A stretch of DNA of 64,000 bases, from positions 22,444,001-22,508,000 of the forward strand of contig CM114271.1 of NCBI GenBank assembly GCA_050084515.1, written 5' to 3'. Source of the stretch: Blasia pusilla. Its lineage: Eukaryota. The position numbers and the translations under genes were made by a program. Position 1 is the first letter of the stretch; the number at the start of each line of letters is the position of its first letter. Under the pieces are notes generated by a model. The model was not told the origin of the DNA. It saw nothing but the letters and a program-made list of their open reading frames with translations, and did no database searches. Positions 3,884-21,474 of this stretch are shown piece by piece.

Positions 3884-6340
3884 AACCCCCATTATTTGAG
3901 ACGCACATCAAAGCTCGTGTCTTGCTTGTGCAACTCATATCTCACTCATGAGATTCTGGCACGTTTCCATCCTAGAGTGAACCCACTAGAGTTCTGATGT
4001 CATGCAATGGCACATGTTTGGTTATGAGGGTTACAAGAATTCTTACCAATAGAGTTTTTTTGAGGAAAAATCTCTTGACTTGCAAAATATTTGCAAATGA
4101 TGTTGTTGGTGTAAACCTTGAAGTGCAGACTATGCAACAAGTATACTTCCAACTTCTTGAGAAAATGAATCAACACATACATCTCCCTTTCATGAGGCTT
4201 GTTATTCTCTAACTTGGCTGACTCATCAAAAATTGATCAATCTACTTAGTTTAACACTTCCCTAATTGCATAGTTAGATGCATTGGTCCAAACTTTGAAT
4301 AAGACCCTGATTTCCAATAACTTGAGTTCATGAGGGTTTTTAACCAAAAACTTTAGTTACTTAAATTCCTCCTAAGACTCCTCAAACCATCAAAATACCA
4401 TTTCTTTCCATGTCGAGTTATAGAGCGGTCAAGCAACCTTGGAAAAATCATAGATATGTCTTCTATAGAAGGTTACAAATCCAAAAGATGACCTTTTCTT
4501 GATTGAATTCCTTGGTGCTGGCCATAAGGCCCATAACTTCATAATTAACCTCAAGCTTGTCATGATTGGGTAGTATGCCTTCCATTTTCAATGTATGTCC
4601 CAAGCATTCCACTTCTTGGACCATGAAGCAATACTTAGAAAGTTTCATGAACAACTTATTCTTCTTCAAACGCCCCAAGACTTCTTTGAGGAGAACCTCA
4701 TGTTCCTTCTAGTTCACTGAATATATGAAGATCTTATCAAAGAATTCTACCACTCCCCTATCTAATAGATCCTAAAAGATAGAATTCACGAGAGTTATGA
4801 ATGTAGCCAACGCGTTAGTTAGTTAAAACAACATCACTAGGAACTAGTAGGATTCGAATCTTGTCCTCATCTTTATCTTATGTTTAACCTCCTCTATTAT
4901 CCAGATTTGGTAATACTCTTGTGTTAGTTCAATCTTTGCAAAATACTTGGACCCTACCACTGCATCAGACAAGTCAACTGCCAAAGGCAACTAATATTTG
5001 TCCTTGATGGTCTTTTGGTTCAACCTCTTGTAATGAATGAACCCGCTTTCCTCCAATGCCTCAATGTGCTCATACAAGAGTTGTCTTTCTTGGGGAGTCA
5101 TACTCCAAGAATTCCTCATAATCGGGGCCATTATAGATTTCAATTCAATCTTATGACCCACGTCTCACCTAGGCGGCAACCCTTTAAGAAGTTCCTTCCA
5201 AGATTTTTCTTAGTTCCTCTTTTAGTGGCACTTCATCCAATTCAGACTCCAAAGTTTTCAACGTGATTCCTCAAAATTGGAACCCTCCCTTGAGATTATT
5301 TTCAAATTGCCTTGTAGAAATCAATTGAGCAACCTATTTTACTTGATTAACCCTCAAAATTTGAGGACGCAATTTTGTGCTTTGAACCTCGAGAATCCTC
5401 ATGGCATTTCCATCACCAAGAGGAACCTTTTATATGCCTTTAGTTGATATAAGCACTCTAGCATATCTACGCAAAAATCTAAGCGATAAAATCATATATA
5501 TATATATTCGAGTCTTTCTACCATCTTCAGATCTAGAAAGTTGAAGATCAGCTCTATATCAATCAAAGCAACCATGGATTTTCGTGCAATAAGTACCTCA
5601 ACTAGATATTAACATTCATTAACAACCTGATGAAAATCCATTGAAGACTCATCACCTTAATTCCCTCAACTCATTCCCTCAAGGCTCGCGATCAATCATG
5701 CTAAACGTCAAGATGATAGTCTCACTTACCTACTCAACATCCTCATGCTTGTTGATTTCTCTTGAATTGCTCACTGTGGCAAGGGGGCTGGTATTATGGC
5801 AGGAGAGAGAAAGAGAGGAAGAGAGGAGAGTCTCTCTTAAAAAAAAAGGGCCAAATCCGCCTCCTCTCTTCAAAACTTTTTGACTTATTTGAAATTTTTG
5901 TTTGCTTTCAAATTCATGAAATATTTAGAAGAGAGTAGGTAGTGGTCCACATTCGGGCCTTAAGAAACCTCCTTTTTCCAGGGGGCGAAAAACAAGTAGA
6001 CATCATAAGTCCACTACAAACATTTTTCCATCACGCTCCATGTGAGCCTAAGTTTCTTCACATTGCCTGTCTCAATCTACAGTAAGCTGTGCCCAGGGCT
6101 ATTTTTTTTGGAGGACCATTGGCAAATAATGTGACAAGAAGTAGCAATCTCATCTCAATGAAAGGTTCAAATAACGACCAACTTTGTGAAATGTGAACTC
6201 AGGAGACGATAATTAAACCAAAAGATTTTTAGCTTTCTGGAGTAAAGAGGAAATGATGTCCCTTCATTCAGATCCTAAATCTGATAAACCGAGAAGCTAC
6301 ACCCCTCCCAATCTGTCAGAATTTTACAGGTTCCAACTCT

Positions 6341-7405
6341 TGCAACCCGTCGGAATCAGATGGCTTGCACCTCTTGCAAGCAAGCTCACCATAACAAAGG
6401 AAAGATTTTGAGAAGTGATTCCATTCCACCCTGCACCCACAAAAATTCAACTTTTTGGGAATCCGAAATGGCAATCCGACAGGTTATAGGAATCCAACAC
6501 GTCTTAGAGAAGAAAAGAAGCCTAAGATTGGTTTGACGATACTAGGGGAACGAGCCAAAAGTGAAGAAGCCCTTCAAAATACCTCAAAATTTGGTGTCCC
6601 AGGGAAAGAGTCCGATCACTCAAGCAGCCAACCTGTCGGAATCCGACAGCTTGCTTGGAAATGGTTGAAAATTTGCAGTGTTGAAAAAGTGAAAAGTTGC
6701 AACCCGTCGGAATCCGACGGGTTGCAAAATTTTAATTCTGAGTAGCTAGACGAACACAATCCACAAGTCCAAAAAAAATATTCAGCAAAATTTTACAAAC
6801 ACCATTATCGGTTGAAAAAATCTCGTCCTTTATTACATCCAAAGGAATCTCGAAAATGTACATTTGATCTAGTCTATGATTTCTTCAGCCTCGTCATCTA
6901 TAATTTTACTCCTAACTCTCCTAGGTTCCTGTACAAAAGGAATGTCTTGGGATACAAGTGGCTCCTTTGGCCGATTGTAGACGGGGATCGAAAATATTGG
7001 GGAATTAGAGAGCCTTGGCCCCCCCTTAGGTACACCATAACCGTCGCATGTAACCTGATTTGAGTCCCACCGCCTTCCTCAGCAGTATATCTTGCACGCT
7101 CTGCAATGTGACACCCATCAAGTATCAATATATGCTCCGTCCTTGGAAATACCATGATGGCAATCCCACAGGTAATAGGAATCCAACATGTCTTAGAGAA
7201 GAGAAGAAGCCTACGCCTTGTTTGACGATACTAGGGGAAGGTGCCAAAGTGAAGAAGCCCGCCAGAATGCCTCTAAAGAGTCCGAAAGAGTCCGATCACT
7301 CACGCAGCCAACCTGTCGGATTCCGACAGGTTGCCTGGAAGTGGTTAAAAAGGTGCAGTGGTCAAAAAGTGAAAAGTTGCAAGCCTTGGAAATCCGGCAG
7401 GTTGT
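6341..7405. repeat. Left subterminal cluster of CAACCCGTC-N7-GACGGGTTG palindromes
   Basis: Perfect 31-bp palindrome TTGCAACCCGTCGGA-A-TCCGACGGGTTGCAA at 6697-6727; variants near 6341, 6628, 7307 and 7378. Confidence 0.9.
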
Positions 7406-7590
7406 AAAATAGAAGTCCTCGGAGTACATAGACGATCACATTTGACAAGACCAAAAAAGATATTCAGAAAAATTTTACAAACACCATCATCGTTCGAAAA
7501 AATCTTGTCCTTTAATATATCTGAAAGAAGCTCGGAACTGTACATTTGATCTATTCTATAAAATATTTTTCCTCGTCATCAAATAAATCC
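6470..7590 (+). repeat. Direct duplication of ~430 bp (6470-6900 and 7159-7590)
   Basis: Both copies begin ggcaatcc.acaggt.ataggaatccaaca.gtcttagagaaga and end cctcgtcatc. Confidence 0.85.
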
Positions 7591-8289
7591 CTACTCAAAA
7601 CGCTGCAGTCAAGCTGGGTCCTTGAGTTCTTTGAACTCACTCATCATCGTCCGAGAGCTCTTCCAAGATTACTGTCGGCCTTGTCCTCCCAATTTTCAGA
7701 ATCGTGGGAAGAGACAATGGTGTCACTACCAATGGTGGGTCTGGAACCGGAGCTCTCAGCTTCGGAGGAGAGTTGTACGCCCCAACTAGCCTGTCGTAAT
7801 CTGCCTTTGCCTCCTTGCAAAGATCAAACAATTATTGCTTTCCCTCAAGGGAGAGAATGTTCGTGCCACTCTGCCAGACGCCTCTGATACTCGCTCCTGA
7901 AAGGCCCACTAAGTCGAACACCAAGTCACCCGGCCTTGAGCAGAGCTTGATGAGCGTTTTGAATCAGGGGTGGCGACTTTTCCCTTCCTCCAAGTAAGGG
8001 GGTACCGTCTTGCATGTAAATTCCCAGGGGGGAATTTTATAAACTATCTAAGCTGTACCCATCGGAGCATGGATCCAGGATCCATGCTTAAACACTTGGA
8101 AGTTGTGCTCGGGCCGAACAAAGCAGTAAACATAAGATTGGTCCATTTGTAAAGAAGCACGTTGGAAACAATGTCAGCAACAAGAAAGAGCTCCTTGACC
8201 ACTGGTCTACTCTCAGTATGGTGACATAATGTGCGACACGTCCCCAAAGAACTTCGCTTAACCCCAGAGAACTTCGTTATAATCCTAAC

Positions 8290-8625
8290 ATTGGAGCAAC
8301 CTGTCGGAGTCCGACGGGTTGTTTTACAAGTGTTGTGTGATTTTTTTGTCCATGAGCAATCCGTCGGAAGGCGACAGGTTGCTGGCTTAGAGCAGCCCAT
8401 GGTTGGCTAAGAGCAACCCGTCGCTTTCAGACGGGTTGTATCATTCCAGAAACACAAGGAAAAAGCATGAGCACTTGCAACCCGTCGGGTTCCGACGGGT
8501 TGCATTCACCCAATGGAGACTTGCGGTAAATTTGCAACCCGTCGCTTTCAGACGGATTGCACCACCGAAGTCTCCAGCTCAAACAATCCGAGGGGTTGCA
8601 TACAGAGATGCAACTCGTCGGAGAA
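8290..8625. repeat. Palindrome array within probable intron 2 of the MTase gene
   Basis: About 6 copies at ~60-bp spacing (8295, 8355, 8412, 8476, 8533, 8610). Candidate donor GTAAG at 8657; the acceptor is unclear. Confidence 0.8.
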
Positions 8626-10719
8626 AGACAATTTGGATACAAATTTAGAGCCCTTACCCGAATTTGACTCGTCGCGGATCAGAATGGGTACTCGTTCTTG
8701 ATGACCCACCATTGCGCCGTCCTCCACTTCAGCGACCTCTTGACGCACTCGAGGTTGAAGAGCTTGTCCTCGCTCCCTCCAGTCAAAACTAAGAAATAGC
8801 CCCTGTCACTGAGATAAGCGTATGCAAAGGAAAAGAGGAGCGCGATCTGGTCATAAGAAAGAGGGAAATTCCAGTCTAGGACCCTGTCGGACGGATTCTC
8901 GTCCCACAAGCGCAACCCCGAGGGCAAATCAGTGACGAGGAGATCCACCGCCACTTCTTCGACCTCCCCATGGACCGTCCAGGCAGCATGCCCGTTTTGT
9001 TGAAGCTTCCATCCCAGCGTTGTCAATTTCTTGATGGCGGGTGTCGACGCTTGGAAATTGAAACTTTTCAGCTCATCCAGAAGATTCGTGGAGTGAATGA
9101 TGACGCTTGTCCGGGTCGTTGTTTCTCTATGTCTTCCCAAGGATGATGGAGTGTATTCCACATCCTGGTCTGCTCCCTAGGACAACCCTGGCGCCTCTCA
9201 CTTCCGCTTCTCCCGAGTCTGCGGTCGGCTTGTTGGGGTCTCTATGACCTTAGACTTTGGTGGAGTTTTTTTTGCAGAGGACCTGGTCCGACCCTCTCTC
9301 CCCGCTCGCCTCGACGATTCCGGCTCTTGCCTTGAATTTTCAGCCTCTCTTTGGGAAGACTCGGCCTCAAAATTCTTCGATCCCCTTGCCTTGGCTTTGA
9401 GACTCGCTGTAGATTTGTCCTTGGCGGTGACGACCTTGGACACCAACTTCGCTGTCTGGAGGGCTTGCTCCTCCGCATCTCCTTCGAAAAAGTCTTCAGG
9501 CTAGACAAAATTGTTGATGTCGTCCCTACCTGCAGTCACTACATCATAGAGCAGGCGTAGATCTTTCTCGGTTATGTCCTCAGGGTCGTTGAAGTCCACC
9601 CCAATCGGGAAATTCTCCACCTCCCAATCGGACATGCTTTGAGCCATCTCCATGTCGTACATGGACAATGTCTCTCCATCAGGCGGAGAAGCCCACAATT
9701 TGGAGGCTGCCGGTATTTTTGCCATGTACTTGCATTCTTACAATGGACGAGGTACCTGAACACCATACGTTGGGCAGCTCTTAGTCGAGATGCATTGGCC
9801 GCCTACTCCTGAAGATCTTGCTTCTATTTCTTCGTTAAGGTCTGCCTGAGGGAGGATGCGATCCTTGAACATCGTCCTGAAACCTGGGTTTTTTATGGGC
9901 TTGTCCCGCATGTCATCCAGCCAAAGTTCAAAATCTTTAGCACTCTCCAGGTTTGCTTCCTCCGAAACTGGCTCTATTCTTTTCAACTCCGCTTGGAGAC
10001 CCACGAGCATGGACTTCCCGAGAAGCCGCAACGCGTCCCAGAATGACCATTCACGGAGCCAATGGGAGATCACTGGATTAGAGACACCCGGAGGATGGTG
10101 TGCCGCCCTCTTTTGGGCCTCTGTGCCCTCGAGATTGATTTTCATGAGTCGGATTCTCCTAAATTTGCTAATTCCAGACAAGGCAAATCGATGCACGCGA
10201 TCGAGAGACACTTTCTCCCCAATCCGACCTTGCGGATCTTCATCCCTCTTCCGCTAGCGCTTGATTATCGCCTTCAGCTCCTTGTAGAAATTGGGGCCAA
10301 GCTCGAGGTTGAGAATGGCGATGTAGCACTGCATCTTGCTTGCCGTGTACTTTGTAGCTACAGATACTGTAGCTTGGATGAACTTTGCACGCTCAAACAC
10401 AGACACTTTCTCCCTCTGCTCCAGCTCCAATGCAGCGCTCTTCTTGGCGGCCTGTATCTTCGACCAACAAAGGATTGTCACGGTTGCATCTTGGGAAATA
10501 AATTTATTTGCCCAAGTCTTTTTTTTTATTTGAGCACCCTTTGCCAACATCTCATTTACAAGGGTGTCGCCCAAGAACCCCTTGTACTCTTCCGGTGCGT
10601 CGTTAGCACTTTCTTCACCCGATCGCAATCCTGGATCCAGTGGTGGGTGACATTCCCCTCCGATACAATCCTGCACATCCAAACTCAATATAAGAATTTT
10701 TGCAAGGTACATGGGTTCT

Positions 10720-11342
10720 TGCAACCTGTCGGACTCCGACAGGTCGTCAAAGCTCATGGTCAGAATGGTAGCTACGAGCTAAATTTTACAACCCATCGGA
10801 GTCCGACGGATTGCATTCAGATTTGTGATTGCCACGTTTCAACCCGTCGGACTCCGACGGGTTGTCAAATAATTTGTATTTAGAGAATGGTTACCGGAAG
10901 AAAAGTGAACATATCAACCCGTCGAAGTCCGACAGGTTGCGCAATTTCAATTAATGTTGGAATTTGACGCAAAAAATGTAGCTCCCCCCATCGGACTCTG
11001 ACGAGTTGCTTTCGGCCAAAAACATCAAAAATCATCCAAAAACACCTGCGAGTCAAGCAAACCGTCAGACTCCGATGAGTTGCTTTCTTCAAAAAACATC
11101 CAAAAATAGCGGCCGGTCGAGCAACTCGTTGGACTCCGACGAGTTGCTTTCGGCCAAAAACATCCTACACCTGTGGTCAGTCGAACAACTCATCGGACTC
11201 CAACGAGTTGCTTTCGGCCAAAAACATCCTAAACCAGTGATTAGTCGAACAACTCGTCGGAGTCCGATGAGTTGCTTTCGGCCAAAAAATCCCAAAAACA
11301 GTGGCGACTCAAACAACTTGTCGGAGTCCGACGGTTTGCAGC
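10720..11342. repeat. Palindrome array within intron 1 of the MTase gene
   Basis: About 10 copies at ~60-70-bp period; local variant gcaactcgtcggactccgacgagttgctttcggccaaaaacatc. Confidence 0.9.
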
Positions 11343-12671
11343 AAGAGGAAACTTACGCGTTCATGGCATACATGGCCATCTCTACCGTCGCCATGTGATG
11401 AGGGTATGGATGTAGCACGACTGCCTTCACGCAAAAATGTGCCTCCAATGAGTTTGGGCGCTCCTCTGCAAACTGGGTCCACGCCATGAACATGTAGTTT
11501 CCATCCTAGATGGAGAAATACAGGTTCCGCATCCAGCTGAATTCCATCCCCTCTATCGCCCTTCTGAATTCCTGATCTCTCATCCTCTAGAATGTGTCGA
11601 GCGCTTCCAAGTCCTCCTCCGTAACCAGCGCTTGGGTTCCATTTTCATTATAAGGCTGAACATAGAACGGAGGGAAGCTGTTGACGTAGGATGTTGTCGA
11701 TGCCGATTGTTTCAGCTTCGCAATATCCTCGTCAGATTGAATTTCGCGGACGTACTCCATTGTTCGCAATCGGCAAAGTGGAATTCTCGGAGCGTTCTGA
11801 CCCTCCATCAGTGCCATATGCTTTACCACCTATCACAACGGGGACAAGGTCAATAAGCTACACTGAATTGCCATTGAATTGCAGCATGGGCCTTCACATA
11901 ATTCAAAGAACACAAATCCTCTCTTACCCGCTCGAAGATTGGGTTGGTGTCTTGGCCAGCCAACTGCTCTTGGATAGTAGCTGGCAAGTCCACTGAACAC
12001 TCGTCGATCCGATAGAGGTTGATTTCTTCCTCCAGGCTTAGAGACGAGGATGACCGCTCTCCTGCTTCTTCAGCGATGTCCACCATCTCCACGATGGCGG
12101 TCCTCATGACCTCATCGTCCGTCACTTGAACTTCGGCCATTTCCGGTATATTGATTGTGTCCCTGGACTTCATCGGGGATATTTCCTGCATCTCAACACT
12201 TTCGGTTGGACGGGCAGGGGCTTTCTTCAATGGCAATCGCTTTTTCCCTCTGAGCTTTTTCCAATTCTGCTCTCCTCACCGACGCGTCCAGACGCTTCTT
12301 TTCACGCTTTTTGTCGGCGATCCTTTTCTTCAAGGCCTGCGACGCCTCAGCCTCTGCGTTCTATTTTTCGAGCGCCTCATTTACGCGTTTTGCAAGAAGC
12401 TCCTGCTAGTGCATCTCCGCTTCCCTTTCCCACTCCTCGATTTCTTGCTGCCTTATCTAATTGGCCAAACGAGGCCCTTGAGATGGTGACGAAGGAGTCC
12501 TCATGGACTTGGGAGTGAAGCTCCCAACCTTGTTTGCTTGAGATTTTTCCCTCGTCATTGTTCCCGAAAATGCCTCTTATGGACAAGGAGATTGCTCTCT
12601 GTGCACGATGAATCGCCTCGAGGAATCGCCTTGATGAGTCACCTTGCTGATGTCGCGATGAGTCGCCTTGA

Positions 12672-12800
12672 TGAGTAGCTCGAATCGTCTCGCAATCGTT
12701 TGCTCGAATCGTCTCGTGATCGTTTGCTCGAATCATCTCGCGATCGTTTGCTTGAATCGTCTCGCGATCATTCGCTCGAATTGTCTCGCGATGAGTCGCC
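12672..12800. repeat. 24-bp tandem minisatellite (~5 copies)
   Basis: Unit gctcgaatcgtctcgcgatcgttt; it reads ETIRANDR repeats in ORF 12377-12829 (-). Confidence 0.85.
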
Positions 12801-12989
12801 GTGTAAAGCCCCCCTTGGTATTTGGTCAACTGCTGCGCGGAAGAGGAATTGAGATCGCGAAACGAAAAACCGGAAATTAGCGAACCTTCGCCTATTTATA
12901 CTTTTCAAGCCGTTGGACTGACTGTTGGGTCGCATCGTCCTTCCGACGGCGACGTGCCGGCCGTTATGGAAGTCTGGACGTGAAAAAAA

Positions 12990-15262
12990 CCAACCTGACG
13001 GCTTCGACGGGTTGCACGCTTCCCGAGGGTTCAAGGCATCCGTCCTCGTGGCAACCCGTCGGAGACCAACAGGTTGCGCGCCTCCGCCGTCTTCAGACAA
13101 GAACACGAGGTACCCGCACAACCTCTCGGAGACCGACAGGTTGCGCGCCTATGCAGTCTTCGGACAAGAACGCGAGGTAACTACACAACTTGTCGGAGAC
13201 CGATGGGTTGCACGCTTCCCTCGTCTTGGGATTACAAGGCGGGCTTCCCGCGCAACTCGTTGGAGGCTGACACGTTGCACACTTCCTTCATGTAAGCGTT
13301 ACAAGGCGAGGCACTTGCGCAACCCGTCTGAGGTCGACGGGTTGCGCGCCTCCGCCGTCTTTGGGCAAGAAGCTGCGGCACCCTCGCAACTCGTCGGAAA
13401 TGTTGTGTCGAGAGTCTTTCTTCGAGCAAGGTCGGGCCTTCTAGCTGCGGTAGATGCGGTCGATGCAAGGAGAACCCTCTAATAAGTTCTCCTTTTTCAA
13501 TACAAAATTATGATGTACACTCTCCATTCTCTCACGACAGGTATCACAAATAGAAGTGCCGAGGCGATCACTTCTTCGTAACATCGGACCCCGAAATTCC
13601 TAACTATAAAATCCCTATAAACTATTTTACGCTTGTACACGAAGAAGATAGCACAACTAGTGTTAAACCCTAGTTGAGTAGGCCTATTGACATCCATGGA
13701 TCGCTATATAAGGACATACAAAGTACAATCCCATGTCCTTCCATATGTGACAATAGGAAGAATCAGCGGAGTTGGAGATTGCATGACTTGGTTCATGAAC
13801 GCCTCCCCAAAGTGATAAACTAAATAGCGAGTGAACCAGTGCCTATCTACAAAGAGTACCTTGACATGGTAAGGATTGAGGAAAGGAAAGTCGGGCACAG
13901 CTCGTGCTCCACCCCTATCCATGCTTGACACACATTCTCTACTCTCCTCAAGAATGGGTTTTGGCGGAGTTATTCTCCCAAGAGGGGTAATCCACTCTCA
14001 TTGGGGAAGTAACAAGCCAAAACATCCGCTATTTTAGTATGACTAAACTCCTCTACGGTGACAAACCTCTCATCCCCACACACACACCACACTCTAGAAA
14101 TCTCTCGAAGAATAGACCATGGTCAAGTTACTCTCCCAAGAAGGGTGATCCACTCTCATTGGAAGAGCAAGCAATCCCAAAGCCATACACTCAAGAGAGA
14201 CACGAGAGACTCAAGATGTGGAATAGAAGGTGATGAACCCTTGAAGGTCCCTCCTCTTTATATACTCACAAGGGATCCACAAGAGTACGAAATAGAGCTT
14301 ATCTTATCTTGTGCCACATGGCTTCCTCTCAAGGCTTAGCCAATCACATTTTGACACAAGTAGATTTCCTCTTATCTCTTCCAAAATATCCTCTTTTACC
14401 CACATGATATTTTCCAAATTACCCCAACTAACCTAGCCACCAACCAAGACTACTTTTGTTTTTCATTAAAGCAACTACTTTACTTTTATAAAGTCATCTT
14501 TTATTTATTACCTCCTTTTCCTAAAGTTGGGCCCGCATAAAAGAGGCACCATAAAGAGGTTTAAACATAAGAATCTCCTTTTTCTAAGCCAATTTACTTA
14601 ATACTAATGAAACTCTATCTAACACTTAATGACGAAGGAGTTTACACACTGGTTGATTTTACTATACGACAACGGGTTACACGCTTCCTTAATGTAAGTG
14701 TTACAAGGTGAGGCAATTGCACAACCCGTCTGAGGCCGACGGGTTGCGCGCCTCCGCCGTCTTCGGGAAAGAAGGCGCGGCACCCGTGCAACTCGTCGGA
14801 GAGCGACGGGTTGCACGCTTCCTTCATGTTAAAGTTAGAAGCTGAGGCAGAAGCGTGCAACCCGTTCGAAGCCAATGGGTTGCACACTTTGCTTATCTTG
14901 GGTTAATAGGCGAGGTACCAGGGCAACCCGTCAATTATCGATAGGTTGCACGCTTTTCTATCCCTCGGGTAACAATGCGACAACGCATAGTTCTGAGGCA
15001 ACCCATTGCAATCCGACGGGTCACAAGATCTATCTTGAGTTGGACAATCCTGCAAAAGTCCCCAACGATTGGTTGCCTTAGCATATGCAATCCATATCTT
15101 GTGTTTGATGCTAGCAAAATCGACTCAAAAGACCTTTGGTTGGCAAGAAGGGGGTTCCAACCCAACGGACTCCGACGGGTTCCAGCAAAAAGAAATGCAT
15201 GCTTCGCAACCAACATCTCTGATTCCCAAATTCTGCAACCCACCTGACTCCGACACGTTGCA
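12990..15262. repeat. Palindrome array (~67-bp period) in the divergent intergenic region
   Basis: Copies near 12991, 13052, 13118, 13186, 13252, 13320, 13387 (split by an insertion, completed at 14672), 14722, 14789, 14858, 14926, 15158 and 15235. Confidence 0.9.
13401..14671 (-). mobile_element. Probable solo LTR inserted into the palindrome array
   Basis: AT-richer, palindrome-free block with TG...CA ends (tgttgtgtcg...tacgaca) that splits one palindrome. 14230-14330 resembles the reverse complement of the LTR at 21700-21790. No clear TSD. Confidence 0.55.
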
Positions 15263-15430
15263 ACAGAATCAAATCCATTGTGTCAGACATTTTCACCTAC
15301 CAAACTTCATCTTGTCAGTCAAATTCTGTCAGGAGAATCTGAGTCCCTATTCGCTATAAATTAAACATTCTCATTCTCATTCGCATTCTCATACCAATTC
15401 TCTGTCTCCTCTCGGTGGAATCTTCTGGGA

Positions 15431-18400
15431 ATGGATGATTATGTAAAGCTCACTTGTGGCAGTCATCTAGCGGCCCTTCCTCAATCAGAAATCGTTCGAC
15501 CGCAAGCTCGTGAGTCTTTCATAGCAATGGATGAAATTTTTCTCTTAGTTCGATTTCTTCTCCAAATTGGAACCATCTTTGTATCCAAGGATGTTAGGGT
15601 GGACGGTACGGAGGACATAATAGGTGAGACAGTCCAGCCAATGATTAGAGACCGTAAAGTATGGAATCTCCTACCTCTAGCAAATGGTCAATACAGAGTT
15701 TACGGCTTGCCTCTGAATTCCTCTGTTTCCCAAGTAGATGGTCGAGAATTTCCTAGTGCACCAAGCTCTACATTTGCAACTCCTAGCTCAGTAGATCCGG
15801 CATCGTCTCCAACTTCACAGGCTCGTAACAATGTTGTACAGCCTGAAGATATTCTGGATGTCGTCAACCTCAATGGATCTGTCGGACACCAATCGGGTCC
15901 TCTGTCCGCCTACTTATTCCTCTTGCGAGTATCAGGAAATAGTTTGCTATCGTCTCTGGCCTTGAAAATATTCAAGCACATTCTTGTCGACGAGCTGCCG
16001 CCCACGTACAATGATAATTGCATTTTTGAGTTGCCTCCACTTGCTGCTCTTGCTCAAAAGAAAGATGGAGGACGATTGAAGGGTATGGACAGAAAGTTTG
16101 ATTGTCATCGATGATGCATGATTCAACGGACTAGTGCTTCAATTCCAAATGGTCCTTGGATTGTCTCCCGCCGCCAATGCGTTGGAGCCTTGGAGTGTAG
16201 AAGTCTAGCATGCCCGTATCTAGAGCGCAACGGGCGAGTCAATACGTCGCAATTCCCCCCCAAGAATGCAGAAATTCCATACAAGGTCGGTGCCACCATA
16301 CCGCCGGGAGGCCATCGATGTCCTCATTGTCAGACATCCCCCTTCTGCGTTGGAGCGTGTCCTGCATACATATTTTTCATTGTCCAGGACTTGGGCTCCA
16401 CGTCAGAGTACACAAGGCTGGCAGTTCATGTTGGCTCCCACACTCATCCTGTGACCGATGCAATTCAGAGACACATCAAGGAGGATGTGGCGAAGAAAGT
16501 TGCCAAGGTCTACAGAAACTCCCCCGGTTCAAAGCCCGGAGTGATCAAGCTCACAACAGCATCACAAATTTGTGAACAATTTCTTGGAATCCCTAGACAA
16601 GGCGAGATCACGGTTGCTCAAGAGAAACAACTTTGGGAAAATCTCGCATTTCTCGCTGATCCTGAATGCTTCCAAAATTTGCTGCGTCTAATATGGGTAC
16701 CGAATGGAAAGACGACCGAAATGGATGCTATTGCCAAAATCAAGGCCAACTCCAAATTTCCATTCATTCAGAGATGGAAGTTCATGGGCCAGGGAGGCGA
16801 GGGATCTAGGGCCTATGTCTTCAAAATGTCAACCACAAGTCCGTCGAGTGGCCTCGATCTTATAGATCGAATGAGGAAAGGGGAAGATCTTTACGGGAGC
16901 TGGGTAAGCTTTGATATTTGCTACAGAGTGCTGAACGGATGGTTGACAATGGGTGCTCACGTTTATGACCATGTGGAGAAGGGACTCAAAACTATATTTG
17001 TCTGTGAAGTAAAAGCACAAGACGTTGGCAGTTTGAAGATGTGCTGGTTACTCTTATTGGAGGTGGTGAAGGAAAACAAAAGGCCACCTCCGGAAATTTA
17101 TGGGTTCATGGCGGACAATGCACAACCTGGGTGGATTGCTATCAGGGAAGTGTTCTGGGGTGGAGAGGGAAAGGTCGGATGCTTTCCATTGGCAACAGTC
17201 TGTGACCCGGTACACCAAATCTTGCATCAAGGAGAATAAGAGGACAGAGCATGTCACTCTACTCCAACGCTGCAAGGACAACAAAACCTTGAAACATGCC
17301 ATGGAATGCCAAGAAGAACTTCATGGGTGGTGGAGGAAGCATGCAATTGAGGGGAAGTACAAAGAGTTGTGCTCTTGGCTGAGTTGGTGGACTGTACATA
17401 TGAGACAATGGGGAAACTTCATGTGGCAGGTGAGTTCAATATTTTGTCTTGTCAAGCTCACGCTGAGAATTATTTGAAAAGTTGCAACTCAAATTGAGAA
17501 GCGTGGGAACTATAGGGATTTCAAACGGAAGAAACCAAGCAACTTGTCGGATGCGACGGGTTGCCCGAGTGTGCAACCCGTCGGAAACAGACTGGTTGCC
17601 CGAGTGTGCAACCCGTCGGAAACGGACAGGTTGCCTGAGTGTGCAACCAGTCTGAAATCGACGGGTTGCATCAAGAATTTTGGTGCAATCCATATATAAG
17701 TATGCAAGTCGCATGTATACAAGGCCTGCAAATAGTTCGACCCGGATGGGTTTCGGATGACTTGCACTTGGATCTTCCAGCCCGGAGTGGCCAAAGGTTC
17801 TTGCAACCTGTCGGAATCGGACGAGTTGCAGTAGGTGGCTCCTGGGTGTTGCAACACGTTGGGATCCGACGGGTCGCAAAGTCGTTCATGGGATGCCTCG
17901 GCCTTGCAACCCGTCTGGTTCTGACATGTAACTTAATTCTTTGACTTTTGAGCTATTTTTGTTCCCTTCTATCATTGCCGTCGTTGCAGGGATTGAACAT
18001 TCATGAAAATGCCCTTTGCCCCAACACAAATGGAGCAGAAAGTGTTCATTCCTCCTGGAGGTCGTCACAAGCATGCCAACGAATTTCACTTGTGGAGGCA
18101 TGCCAACAAGACCATGCAAGAGCAATGCTACAATCTGCAGCATCCCATATCTTCCTCACAAAAGGCATAACAAAAGGAAGGGGGCCTTTGATCTACAAGC
18201 TCTATGTCAGGGCGGCTGTGAGATCTGGAGATGAAAAACTCTATGTGGAAGCCTTCAACCGGTGCGTAGTAGGAACTTCCCTCGAGCAAGACGTACACAT
18301 TGGTGGGAATATTTGTGGGTGGGTTTCAAGACGTCCCATACAGATGGTGGTAGAGCAGTCCGAGCGAGACTCGTGGAGACCAGATAAGTATCTTGTCTTC

Positions 18401-19491
18401 AGGCAGGTGAAGAGGCAACATCGAGGAACGAATCCGGTGATTGATTTGGATGAGGAAATTACACCACCCAAGTATTCTGGGACCCCGGACCGCTCCCAAA
18501 TCCGTGATGGAGTAACTTCTCCAAAATCAGTTAATGTTTTATTTCAAAAGTCCTCCATTGCTGGAAGTTCGCAACATCCGGTCGCTGGGGTGGTTCAACA
18601 ATATGGGATTCTGGTCATGGAGGTGGATTGCAACCTAAAACGGTGGCATATATCTTGGAGCAACCCGAGACGTGGACCCACTTGCAGGGCAAGATCTTAT
18701 GGCATTAGGAGAGCATGCGGCACTTTCCTAAATAAGAACTGTACAAGGACTGGACGACCAATGCCTTGGTTTTGGGGACTCAAAACCTTTGATCGTTTCA
18801 CGAGGACCTGGGATCAATTGAAGTTCTTCTTCTGCCCAAATGAATCTTGCGCTTTCCGCAAGTCTTATCCGGATGCCATTGGAGCTCCGGGGAATACCCT
18901 CACGATTTGGCCCACCGACGGAGGTACGAATTACACTCAAGACGAAGTGGACAATCTTACAAGTTCTGATTTCAGACTCGTAGACGGAGGAAGTTCAGAG
19001 CATGTTCACATTACAGAGACCTTTGCATTTCGTATTCAACCCAAGATTGACGTCAACATGTATCCGGAGAAGGTGGATGATCTCAATCCACTATTTCTGT
19101 TTGAGTCTAGAAATGGGGTGAAGAGAAACAGAAGGTGTAGGCAATGGTGGAGAGAGCAAAGCGAATTGCATTAGCTCGAGAGGCAAAAATGGAGATCATC
19201 GCCACAAAAGATGTCCACAGTGGCAATGGAATAGGAAGGATGTATTGTTTCAGGAACAACACTGTAAATTCAAGTGTCACACGGGTGTATGTGGTGCACA
19301 TCTGTTGCTTTCCCACATGTTCATGTGATGACTTTGTCCAAAGAGAGATAAGTGGCAAAATGTAGTTCCCTTGTAATCACATGTACTATGTGTTGCTTGT
19401 AGTTTTAAGAGAGTCGGAGGTAGGAGTAGGAATCCACCAACCAATTCTATCCCTCAAAGAAGTGCGAAGTATTTTAAACAAACCACTTTGA
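15431..19491 (+). pseudogene. Mutator-like transposase: GCM-like Zn domain, MULE DDE core, SWIM finger (decayed; one intron 17430-17989)
   Basis: Cys/His domain CVGALEC..CP...CPHC..CPA...HVGSHTHP. Catalytic candidates SFD (16913), MADN (17114), FHW (CxxH position) and TNGAESVH (~18040). SWIM CSC..PCNH (19318-19380). Phase-0 intron GTGAGT..TTGCAG joins ORFs 17100 and 17948. Stops at 16112 and 19363; frameshifts near 17165 and 19140. Confidence 0.85.
17535..17925. repeat. Palindrome array within the transposase intron
   Basis: About 7 copies (17539, 17572, 17607, 17643 at a ~35-bp period; 17801, 17850, 17905). Confidence 0.9.
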
Positions 19492-20503
19492 GGATGCAAA
19501 ATGAGGTTTTAGATTGTACTTTCATTTTTCCAGAACCTTCACTTTGAGCTTGAACTTTATTCAACCGAGGGCAAATCATAGATTTTTTCCAAACCTTGGA
19601 TGGAAAAAGTGATTGGTTCCACACTTATGATTCCACTGATTTTTCAGTTTTCTAAATTTTGTGCAATTTGCAACTCGTCGGACTCAAAGGGGTTGCCAAA
19701 ATGTGGAAGAGGAAAAAAAAAACTGTGGGAGTGCTAAAGAACTGAGCACAAAAGTGCAAAAAAAATCACACAAAAAGGGTTTCCTCTCTTCAACCCAACG
19801 GAACTCTCTTCAAATCATAGGAAACTCTCTTCAAAAAAATTATCTCTTTCTGTTGAAGGTAGTTTCCTCTCTCCTCTCTCCTCTCTTCCTCTCCTCTTAC
19901 CGCACCTCACTGTGGCAATTGTACGACCTTTCTTGCATGGGCCCTTTTTCCTTGGGAAAATCCCATTTGAAATGACCAACATCATCGTACACATAATACC
20001 TTTGAGCTCTAGCGTAGAGTCCCTGGCTTGCATTTGTTGGGGTTTGAACCTTTTGGGTTTTGACCCCACTTATGGCCTTGTCTTATGGGATTTCCTCTTT
20101 TTTGACCAATGAAATGGTGCCCCTACCTTTGAATGGGGACCATCTTGTCTCACTTCTTGTGACTTGGATCACCTGCCATCAATTGAGTAGCCATATGAAT
20201 GGTTGCCTTTAGCTTCCCAAACTTGGTTTCTTGGGTTGCACTTTTCTCCCTTCATTTCCGTTTCAAGTTGGGTGGCATTCCCTCCACTAAGTTGAAGATT
20301 TGGTTGGCATCTAACATTTTATCAATCACCGTCAACATCTCTTGGAACTAAGTAATGAAGCTTGCAATCAAGCCTTTCAATTGCATTTTCCACAACCGGA
20401 ATCTTGGCTTTGGTTGCTTGATCCTTTGGGACTAAATACCTTCTCATTTTTGAGGTGAGTGCCCCCCATACGGCTCTATGGTATTTCGGTCCTTAAAAAT
20501 TTT

Positions 20504-20511
20504 TGATACCA
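20504..20511 (-). promoter_or_regulatory. tRNA-iMet primer binding site (partial)
   Basis: The minus strand reads ...CA|TGGTATCA directly after the LTR end at 20512. Confidence 0.6.
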
Positions 20512-21474
20512 TGTGAGAGCATATGGCTTCCAATTTTAAAGAAGCCTCGACTCCCCATTTGGCTCTTGGAACATGGTAAGTCCCAAAAAATGCTCTACCT
20601 TAGTCACCGACTGATTGAGGTGTTTGTATCTATCTCGTCCCTATACGTGGGTAACTTCTTCATCAAGTCTCCCAATTGATATCCTAGGGACGGGATCGAA
20701 GTTGAGCTACTTGCATTTATGGTCTTCCCAACTATATGGTCCATTTGGCCTTGCAGTTGTTCCTTCACCATCTCAAAGATAGGATGATGAACCTCATTGA
20801 AACTCACGAGCCATTGAAACCCTACGACCTTCCTCCGAATCCCCCAAGATCTAGTTCCTCCAACTAGTCGCCACAAGTTTTGGCAAGGATTTATTTTTTA
20901 TCGGAATTTTGTCCCCTTAACCCTCATCTTGATCAGGTAACTAGTTGAGTTCCTTAATATTCTAGAAGTCCCATGGGAAATGGGGCCCAATGGGCTCATT
21001 CCCCAAATCCCTCCCAACTTTCCCCAAGTTGGGACGGTTCAAGCTCCATGACTCTTTTCTTACTCTCATGAGGCTTGTCCTTATCCTTGGCCATGTCCAT
21101 TGCTACCACCAAAATCGCCTACTAACTATGGCTATATGTCTTATGGCTAGTACCCGTCTTGACTTCCTATTGGGCGTTTCATGGTTTTTTTTCGCCCATG
21201 GTGTTCCATGTCTAATCTCATGATGTCTCATCTATCTTAACTACTCATGTGTTCCTCGGTTCTCGCCTTTAACTAGGCACTTGGCTCCAAGGTCTCAAAC
21301 GTTGCTTGGCTTGACTCAATCCCTATAAGTAGCCACACCCTTTAATTGCCTAAGGCTAGTCTCAAGACACATGCACATCCCACCTAGCGTTAGTCCCGCG
21401 GAGCAACGGGGGACACCACCCCCCTTCCTAGTCTTGCAACTAGCTAGTCTAGGTTTTGCCTTTGGTGGGTAACA
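20512..21474 (-). repeat. 5' LTR of the minus-strand gypsy element
   Basis: TG...CA ends, an adjacent PBS, and homology to 190-516. Confidence 0.65.

Follow-up and report, generated by a model that had tools for sequence, protein, structure and literature searches.

Accessory genes that join ParB-like and DNA-modifying domains are described for transposons of two algae. In the brown alga Ectocarpus, the strand opposite to the transposase of Sola1-1_Ec32 encodes a protein of 1,104 aa that combines a ParB-like domain with a DNA methyltransferase (MTase) domain predicted to produce N4-methylcytosine (4mC) or N6-methyladenine (6mA), and the authors propose, in the accessible part of the paper, that this accessory protein binds and modifies its own transposon (PMC12477816). 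In the Plavaka elements (EnSpm/CACTA) of Bostrychia, as far as the available text describes them, PAG2 is an N6-adenine methylase with a SET domain and PAG3 a ParB N-terminal domain with a 2-oxoglutarate (2OG) oxygenase; tandem inverted-repeat arrays adjoin PAG3 and are proposed as binding sites, together with the idea of self-modification and an analogy to VANDAL elements (bioRxiv 10.1101/2025.02.11.637652). A 'Dam + ParB-HTH' family of chlorophytes and chytrids appears in the available portion of the work of Iyer et al. (PMC4738411), and the host 4mC methylases of Marchantia have the canonical TSPPY motif, according to the part of that report at hand (bioRxiv 10.1101/2021.02.12.428880). Here we describe a transposon with an accessory gene of this kind in Blasia pusilla. 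It occupies 5783-19905 of a stretch of 64,000 nucleotides (assembly GCA_050084515.1, contig CM114271.1, positions 22,444,001 to 22,508,000 of the forward strand), which we call the window, and it contains 40 copies of the 27-nt palindrome GCAACCCGTCGGANTCCGACGGGTTGC.

We are highly confident that the element belongs to a highly repeated family of autonomous cut-and-paste DNA transposons, that this copy is dead, and that it carries an unclassified MULE-like DDE transposase and, on the opposite strand, an accessory gene. Jointly with this identity, the same high confidence covers the parts of the accessory gene (a ParB/sulfiredoxin-like N-terminal domain, a well-folded helical domain, a charged linker and a circularly permuted beta-class amino-MTase-like domain) and the membership of the element in a recently noted class, the eukaryotic transposons with accessory genes that combine ParB and DNA modification. 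More tentatively, and by analogy, we suggest that the accessory protein would bind the palindromes of its own element and bring the MTase-like domain to the element DNA; the explanation as a whole, identity and mechanism averaged, we rate a little short of even. New here are the different transposase family, the liverwort nearest relatives, the fused architecture with a non-canonical catalytic motif, and the site array that runs through introns. The original prediction asked for more, treating the association of an MTase/ParB gene with a MULE and a site array as possibly new. That was too strong, with the Ectocarpus Sola1 and Bostrychia Plavaka cases in print and the same architecture and idea already proposed for algal transposons in the accessible text of those papers (PMC12477816, bioRxiv 10.1101/2025.02.11.637652).

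The element, its ends and its transposase

Within the 64-kb window the 13-mer CTCACTGTGGCAA has exactly two occurrences, 5770-5782 and 19906-19918, and none on the opposite strand. This exact target-site duplication (TSD) bears out the 14.1-kb unit that had been predicted. For boundary mapping, the contigs of a DNA run and the raw reads of three RNA runs, all under one organism label, were placed on 4800-20900 at 90% likeness. The DNA contigs concentrate on 5337-19835, where the summed depth per bin is 80 to 125,796 (by the tool's own caveat, summed contig depth is not copy number), and the flank bins have 1.9 on the left and 114 and 0 on the right. Depth is thus high inside the unit and at background at its ends, from which we place it in a highly repeated family whose copies share these ends. 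At 5812, RNA reads with loose ends contain the terminus of another copy, GGGGGCTAGTATTCTCGCAGG, following unrelated sequence and with the same left terminus GGGGGCT.GTATT, which confirms the left end.

No long or clear terminal inverted repeat (TIR) was found between the element ends; the sole inverted match is a 26-nt GA-rich stretch that sits some 30-60 nt in from either end. Of the 11 copies of the octamer GAAGAGAG in the window, 7 lie no more than about 150 bp from an element end (5818-5935 and 19784-19888), mostly in inverted orientation: plus in 2 of the 3 left-end copies and minus in all 4 right-end copies. For a terminal transposase-binding site, the obvious candidate is this octamer and not the palindrome. 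The features of the element and its immediate borders are as follows.

5770-5782, unstranded: left TSD copy, 13 bp, CTCACTGTGGCAA; the 13-mer is found otherwise only at 19906
5783-19905, unstranded: complete transposon copy, 14,123 bp, decayed (TSD, repeat-depth edges, left terminus in reads from other copies)
5783-5935, plus strand: left terminal region, a candidate end for transposase binding, which starts GGGGGCTGGTATT, with GAAGAGAG at 5818 (plus), 5864 (minus) and 5928 (plus) (octamer clustering, GA-rich inverted match)
6342-7405, unstranded: five palindromes in the left subterminal or 3′-untranslated region (3′-UTR), within a tandem duplication of about 680 bp (palindrome scan, repeat search)
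7636-8155, minus strand: last accessory exon, second half of the MTase-like domain and acidic tail, three internal stops (translation P0107, BLASTP)
8156-8654, minus strand: putative accessory intron 2, donor GTAAGG near 8655, six palindromes (8296-8636) (gap between homology blocks)
8655-10700, minus strand: main accessory exon, helical middle domain, K/E-rich linker and first half of the MTase-like domain (read-through P0010, 27 homologues)
10701-11355, minus strand: putative accessory intron 1, donor GTAAGT right after 11356, ten palindromes (10721-11339) in a 64-nt array (homology gap, donor)
11356-11829, minus strand: exon for the ParB/sulfiredoxin-like N-terminal domain, IPLCRL ... DGNYM (11491-11505) (P0181, tblastn E 1e-19 to 5e-16 against Riccia)
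11830-12360, minus strand: probable accessory 5′ part, low-complexity acidic/basic N-terminus (comparable N-terminus in relatives)
13051-15261, unstranded: intergenic region with 12 palindromes (13051-13345 and 14721-15261; 67-nt array), split by a nested repeat (palindrome scan)
13401-14671, unstranded: nested unrelated repeat, 1,271 bp, TG...CA ends, solo-LTR-like (LTR, long terminal repeat), outside the system (RNA and DNA depth, loose ends)
15431-17429, plus strand: transposase part 1, ATG at 15431, cysteine-rich N-terminal region, SFD and FMADNA with the first two predicted catalytic Asp, D-A-F-H (homology, alignment)
17430-17989, plus strand: transposase intron, GTGAGT ... TTGCAG, six palindromes (17573-17932) (splice signals)
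17990-19380, plus strand: transposase part 2, NTNGAESVH with the candidate catalytic Glu, then a frame change and a SWIM-like pattern (alignment, by eye)
19670-19696, unstranded: lone palindrome in the right subterminal region (palindrome scan)
19784-19905, minus strand: right terminal region, with GAAGAGAG at 19784, 19804, 19825 and 19881, all minus (octamer clustering, GA-rich inverted match)
19906-19918, unstranded: right TSD copy, 13 bp, an exact repeat of the left 13-mer

Protein homology maps both members of the predicted divergent gene pair, the accessory gene on the minus strand and the transposase on the plus strand (15710-17444 plus 17945-19174). The transposase ATG comes after a TATAAAT box, and the frame has a TGA stop at 16112-16114 and a frameshift near 17166. 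Towards its end, at 19318-19380, is a C-S-C-x15-C-N-H pattern, SWIM-like by eye and with a stop codon inside; Pfam gives no SWIM match for it. The search with a 374-aa open reading frame (ORF) of the transposase gives 9 relatives at E 9e-47 to 1e-20, of which two carry the name Calypogeia fissa, and a profile search adds 75 further proteins, all ENA or JGI records. Precomputed Pfam domains are found on none of the 75 profile matches and none of the 9 first matches, and in 15 members of the transposase family there is no match at E <= 10 to Pfam MULE (PF10551), to Transposase_mut or to any other Pfam family.

In MULE transposases the DDE triad has a [C/D]xxH following its second Asp, and the Glu is not preceded by a large insertion. 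Counted by hand, the layout in the transposase alignment is SFD, about 66 residues, FMADNA, about 26 residues, D/C-x-F-H and G-A-E-S-V-H; the second Asp and the Glu are about 125 residues apart. Such a layout would be compatible with a MULE. The nearest clusters in the protein Atlas language model are MULE, with scores of 0.77-0.82 that lie below the 0.9 line and serve as a lead only. MULEs also have TSDs of about 8-11 bp and long TIRs, and against membership stand the 13-bp TSD, beyond that range, and the lack of a long TIR. We conclude that the plus-strand gene encodes a predicted DDE transposase, MULE-like in motif layout and not demonstrably a MULE. The earlier MULE call is loosely supported, by the order of motifs and the Atlas lead, and Pfam, TSD length and TIRs do not bear it out. 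A CACTA/Plavaka or Sola identity was set aside by criteria from general knowledge: the 13-bp TSD, termini that start with GGGGG where CACTA would be expected, and the small distance between the second Asp and the Glu.

Decay, also foreseen, is spread over both genes. The ParB-like exon has 2 stops, both TAG where relatives have Trp, the main accessory exon 6, the last accessory exon 3, and the transposase 1 stop and 1 frameshift. With at least 11 stops and a frameshift, the window copy is, to judge from its reading frames, dead, a fossil without activity of its own. Position 16114 is G in all 19 RNA reads and in 4685 of 4803 depth units of the DNA contigs, which turns the transposase stop into Trp; related copies without this stop therefore exist and are transcribed at a low level.

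The accessory gene and its predicted domains

The accessory gene is placed on the minus strand by four blocks of homology, 11829-11356, 10592-9300, 9005-8652 and 8155-7636, the last of them by inspection and BLASTP. Homology in the main exon reaches a tblastn E of 1e-17. Between 10778 and 8682 the main frame is open apart from five stops; a sixth stands at 8679-8681. No reads spliced across the proposed introns are listed for the three RNA runs, so homology gaps and GT..AG signals are the basis of the intron calls.

Relatives of the accessory protein are found in Riccia. A phmmer search with a 699-residue read-through against 1.84 billion representatives gives 27 relatives at E <= 1e-3, 7 of them at E <= 1e-10, and the 5 named ones looked up among the 27 are all Riccia. 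The profile search gives 77 proteins, all named Riccia sorocarpa, and one further member is from Riccia fluitans. The 77 proteins therefore point to a multi-copy family, as expected of a transposon gene. Full-length members have about 1,050-1,250 aa and begin with a low-complexity N-terminus, an I-P-L-C-R-L ... W-D-G-N-H-R domain and a long helical domain, followed on the C-terminal side by a K/E-rich linker and then D-[LM]-P-[ST]-G ... DDRGCLIILH ... GDIVIDFxGGWGAT. Pfam finds no relevant family on the 10 largest ORFs or on the read-throughs P0010, P0011, P0107, P0181 and P0182, and a PDB sequence search with a 165-aa ORF finds nothing. A metagenome scan with protein P0030 gives 31 pattern matches, none confirmed.

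The fold models are of intact Riccia relatives; the window copy is their homologue, in broken form. For P0059, AlphaFold with an 89-row alignment gives a model whose predicted local distance difference test score (pLDDT) is 75-95 over most of 560-840, with dips near 715-719 and 740-771. Foldseek matches this model to 50 PDB structures at E <= 1e-3. CcrM is the top match (4.4e-8), and other leading matches are M1.HpyAVI, M.BceJIV, MboIIA, RsrI, the rotifer N4CMT and M.PvuII; the top matches have a probability of 1.00 each and a target template modelling (TM) score of up to 0.75. The C-terminal domain of the accessory family is, on these models, a beta-class DNA amino-MTase fold, in line with the MTase call of the original prediction.

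Motif I, DFxGGWGAT, is conserved in the accessory family. It is preceded by about 150 residues by D-x-P-T/S-G, the equivalent of motif IV, which is a permuted order. The window has the same order, with DLPSG at 8916-8930 and motif I as GDLVFDLVGLSGAS at 7889-7930, both on the minus strand. The commonest Pfam family among members is N6_N4_Mtase, in 8 of 89, where the motif-I region is present in 10 rows only. These matches are all below the cut-off and limited to profile positions 165-218. The accessory pieces of the window itself have no match to N6_N4_Mtase; the last-exon translation P0107 aligns to P0059 at 773-806, within the part that matches N6_N4_Mtase (E 0.008, a single comparison).

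For the N-terminal part, the model of P0020 has a pLDDT that lies mostly at 59-93 across 150-320, dipping near 190-220, and exceeds 90 in the helical domain. Its first three PDB matches in Foldseek are Noc, ParB-CDP and a plant sulfiredoxin, all weak (E 0.2-0.3), the sulfiredoxin with a probability of 0.95 and a target TM of 0.65. Named matches in BFVD are Spo0J, ParB-like nuclease and ParB N-terminal (probability 0.9-0.99, E 5e-3 to 0.2); a DndB-like protein is also matched (probability 0.69). ParB/sulfiredoxin is the only named fold that recurs, in both libraries, and we assign it to this domain with at most moderate confidence. Riccia members have W-D-G-N-H-R/Q here and the window D-G-N-Y-M in place of WDGNHR. 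By its position in the model, with no significant alignment, W-D-G-N-H-R may stand where the ParB superfamily (GxxR / DGxHR type) has its Arg motif.

In the protein Atlas, residues 130-345 of P0039 are nearest to fungal DUF3723 clusters (0.95, 17 matches) and to ParB_N clusters (0.91), both leads only. DUF3723 is, in the available text, a conserved accessory gene of the Starship giant transposons (bioRxiv 10.1101/2021.12.13.472469). A possible distant kinship between DUF3723 and the reader domain may, on sequence clusters, link transposon accessory genes across kingdoms. Upstream of the conserved accessory part, an ORF on the minus strand contains a 24-nt tandem repeat of at least 4-5 units (12600-12800) that encodes ...RANDRETI... 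peptides.

The palindromes and a possible mechanism

All 40 sites of the palindrome in the window, scanned at up to 8 mismatches over 27 nt, lie within 6342-19696, matching the roughly 40 copies confined to the unit that were first reported. Shuffling the element 20 times gives 0 sites in each shuffle, and a 12-nt half-site with up to 2 mismatches has 71 matches inside the unit and 0 outside. Base conservation in the core lies at 0.62-1.00 for 25 of the 27 positions, with 0.68 at position 1 and 0.33 at the central N, core values that are partly set by the procedure of site selection; the 12-nt flanks on either side are at background level (0.28-0.55). A metagenome scan with a 25-nt palindrome pattern has 0 matches.

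The sites are all in about 7.1 kb of non-coding DNA and none is in about 7.0 kb of putative exons: 5 are left subterminal or in the 3′-UTR, 6 in accessory intron 2, 10 in accessory intron 1, 12 intergenic, 6 in the transposase intron and 1 right subterminal. The same palindrome is present in the introns of both genes and between them, which argues that both genes belong to one element. In the left arm, a tandem duplication of about 680 bp (6468-7410, copies 81-89% identical) has duplicated two palindromes.

We propose that the accessory protein would recognise its own 27-bp palindromes by the ParB-like or the helical part, as ParB and KorB do at palindromic sites, and that this binding would recruit the MTase-like domain to the element's own DNA. 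The domain might write an amino-methyl mark there, or the protein might merely occupy CG-rich sites, and the mark or occupancy could counter host silencing by 5-methylcytosine (5mC) or label the element as 'self'. Obvious targets for a mark would be the central GANTC, which we take to be the CcrM recognition site, or the cytosines of the four CG in the palindrome arms. The transposase probably uses other sites, the GAAGAGAG clusters at both ends.

A bolder form of this proposal is that a transposon lineage of bryophytes encodes a site-directed DNA-marking system, in which a ParB-like reader on the palindromes guides a D-x-P-T/S-G MTase that writes 6mA at GANTC or 4mC in the CG arms. We give it little chance of being right. 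If true, the element would have an epigenetic identity of its own, able to block or override host silencing by 5mC, and it would be a transposon-borne eukaryotic analogue of parS/ParB or of a modification module, in a plant group with laboratory models.

Points that weigh against the proposal come from the protein, the sites and the other copies alike. On the protein, no Pfam family reaches its curated cut-off on any accessory member (the best is N6_N4_Mtase on P0059, 25.9 against 26.7 bits), and a PDB sequence search with the family profile gives one irrelevant match (E 0.15). Pfam ParB_N (PF02195) matches 0 of 89 members, with ddrB-ParB on one member at E 0.064, and the N-terminal domain has no Foldseek match at E <= 1e-3 in PDB or BFVD. 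Of the predicted ParB-like domain there remains the recurrence of ParB/sulfiredoxin as the sole named fold. The canonical (D/N/S)PP(Y/F/W) is absent as well. Its aromatic residue stacks on the flipped base, and at motif IV no family row that has the position carries an aromatic residue; the motif is D-[LMI]-P-[TS]-G, with D in 20 of 23, P in 25 of 25 and T/S in 22 of 25 rows that have the region. This change is conserved and therefore a property of the family, not decay. Because motif IV lacks the aromatic residue family-wide, MTase activity is doubtful: the domain may be inactive or act on another substrate, the predicted writing of a bacterial-type mark on the palindromes is weakened, and that the domain methylates DNA seems to us, from its motifs, a distinctly minority prospect.

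These motifs also suit another account, in which the accessory protein binds the palindromes and the MTase-like domain is a pseudo-enzyme, the protein being a shield, a transcriptional regulator or an anti-silencing factor like KorB or VANC. The loss of one proline together with the aromatic residue in every member that has the region is conserved rather than random, and the exclusively non-coding palindromes, 12 of them between two divergent promoters, would fit the sites of a regulator. However, the glycine-rich loop for S-adenosylmethionine (motif I) and the overall fold are kept, which suggests that cofactor binding is still selected, and we consider this account, binding and pseudo-enzyme together, rather improbable. 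A further point against it is a Vibrio phage DNA methylase (L001:2432-3241) with DIPYG at motif IV, so that an annotated methylase can have a hydrophobic residue where the first proline would be. In hhalign, the family profile places D-M-P-T-G opposite this DIPYG, an alignment that is not significant (probability 0.8%, E 0.07). Searching phage records with P0039 by tblastn gives 17 matches, none significant (E 0.2-0.9), and 10 of the 12 listed are on annotated DNA methylases; the plasmid records give one irrelevant match (E 0.9).

On the sites, the central GANTC is in the palindrome consensus and is kept in just 18 of the 40 copies, and a palindrome has GA/TC beside its centre by accident with a probability of about 1 in 16. 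The differences of the palindromes from the consensus are C>T or G>A in 87 of 160, and CpG positions are altered more often (68 of 320) than other positions (92 of 720). This is a signature of cytosine methylation and deamination, as in a copy that was unprotected.

Another reading of the sites is that the palindromes are unrelated to the accessory protein, as transposase or host-factor sites or slippage minisatellites, with the protein acting elsewhere (on the genome or RNA) or not at all. Short subterminal and internal repeats are common in cut-and-paste transposons, the palindromes form tandem arrays with periods of 35, 57-64, 67 and 71 nt, as slippage would give, and nothing links them physically to the protein. 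Yet arrays of differing period and spacer have only the 27-nt core in common, with flanks not conserved, which argues for selection on the palindrome itself. The ends have a separate clustered and inverted motif, GAAGAGAG; the palindromes come no nearer to them than about 560 bp and about 210 bp. Red algae provide an independent report of inverted-repeat arrays together with ParB-domain accessory genes, in the accessible text on Bostrychia. A lack of any relation between the palindromes and the protein we find rather improbable.

On the other copies, summed contig depth over the accessory gene is 0.7-10.8 thousand (8559-12854) and over the transposase 19-59 thousand (15003-19298), thus 5-10 times lower over the accessory gene, and just 80 at 12855-13391. 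Many family copies may lack the accessory gene, as deletion derivatives or with the gene confined to a sub-lineage, although depth is not copy number. The same difference in depth, and the separate repeat that is truly nested at 13401-14671, also speak for an origin of the two genes from different mobile elements, one nested in the other, or for an accessory gene that is a captured host fragment (Pack-MULE-like) with no function in the element. We consider this very improbable. The palindrome is in the introns of both genes, between the genes and near both ends, and no second TSD or terminus is seen around the accessory gene. Unlike a captured fragment, the gene is multi-copy in Riccia, with motifs conserved over 1,000+ residues, and a homologous opposite-strand arrangement is described for Ectocarpus in the part of that paper at hand.

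The nested repeat interrupts the intergenic palindrome array and is the only strongly transcribed part of the element; the RNA of three runs covers it on one strand at a depth of 50-107, and its repeat depth in DNA is very high. Loose ends are found at both edges, consistent downstream (agreement 0.96-0.98) and variable upstream, and RNA reads connect 14671 back to 13401, as in a tandem or circular form. There is no matching TSD at its edges. It looks like a solo LTR or a piece of an expressed LTR element. Just left of the transposon insertion, the minus-strand ORF 4463-4708 is reverse-transcriptase-like (…KLFMKLSKYCF…), of Ty3/Gypsy type by eye.

Comparison with known systems

Accessory genes of eukaryotic transposons that combine ParB and DNA modification are, to our knowledge, so far described by annotation in algae, and we know of nobody who has shown the binding or the mark. 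This case supplies a precisely defined 27-bp candidate site, restricted to the non-coding DNA of the element, and the family-wide change in the catalytic motif predicts that the domain has found a new way of catalysis or else is a pseudo-enzyme. Given the size of the family in Riccia, intact copies suited to assays of binding and methylation should occur naturally. Should the mark prove real, the element would have a transposon-encoded epigenetic self-label in plants; if not, it would encode a sequence-specific DNA binder with a logic comparable to VANC. A literature search found no report of a ParB+methylase gene in a land-plant or MULE-type element; supplements may hold cases.

Two of the known systems are comparable in how they may work. 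KorB of IncP plasmids is a ParB-family protein that uses one palindrome at many dispersed sites and regulates plasmid genes; it differs from the protein here as a bacterial protein of a partition system, without an MTase domain. VANDAL21 of Arabidopsis is a MULE-type element whose accessory protein VANC reportedly acts on short motifs repeated in its own non-coding DNA. We know of no ParB or MTase relative in VANC, and the likeness to it is functional and hypothetical only.

The beta-class amino-MTases of bacteria and phages (CcrM, M1.HpyAVI, M.RsrI, M.PvuII) are like the C-terminal domain in fold and in the order of motif IV before motif I. They and the ParB-linked methylases differ from the gene here, which has D-x-P-T/S-G at motif IV, introns and a place in a eukaryotic transposon. 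The ParB-linked methylases of phages and plasmids, taken as far as the available text presents them (PMC4738411, PMC5512222), are also distant by search, with a best tblastn E of 0.2 for phage and 0.9 for plasmid, neither significant.

The Ectocarpus element is also a giant cut-and-paste transposon, with an opposite-strand gene that has both domains in one protein. It differs in its brown-alga host and Sola1 transposase, whereas the transposase here is MULE-like and the nearest relatives are liverwort, a comparison made by description only and limited to the available text. That text does not mention a site array; the element here has an array and a non-canonical catalytic motif. One reference in the Ectocarpus paper is a 2011 book chapter, said to be by Iyer, Abhiman and Aravind and on eukaryotic DNA methylation systems.

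Bostrychia Plavaka shares, in the accessible text, a ParB-domain accessory protein, a giant DNA transposon, inverted-repeat arrays and a methylase, and most of its copies are likewise degenerate and weakly transcribed. It differs in transposase superfamily, termini and TSD. Its ParB domain is fused to an oxygenase and its methylase is separate, with SET, whereas the ParB-like and MTase-like domains here are in one protein. Finally, the Bostrychia arrays, as described in that text, lie beside the gene, and those of the element in the window are spread over three introns and the intergenic and subterminal DNA.

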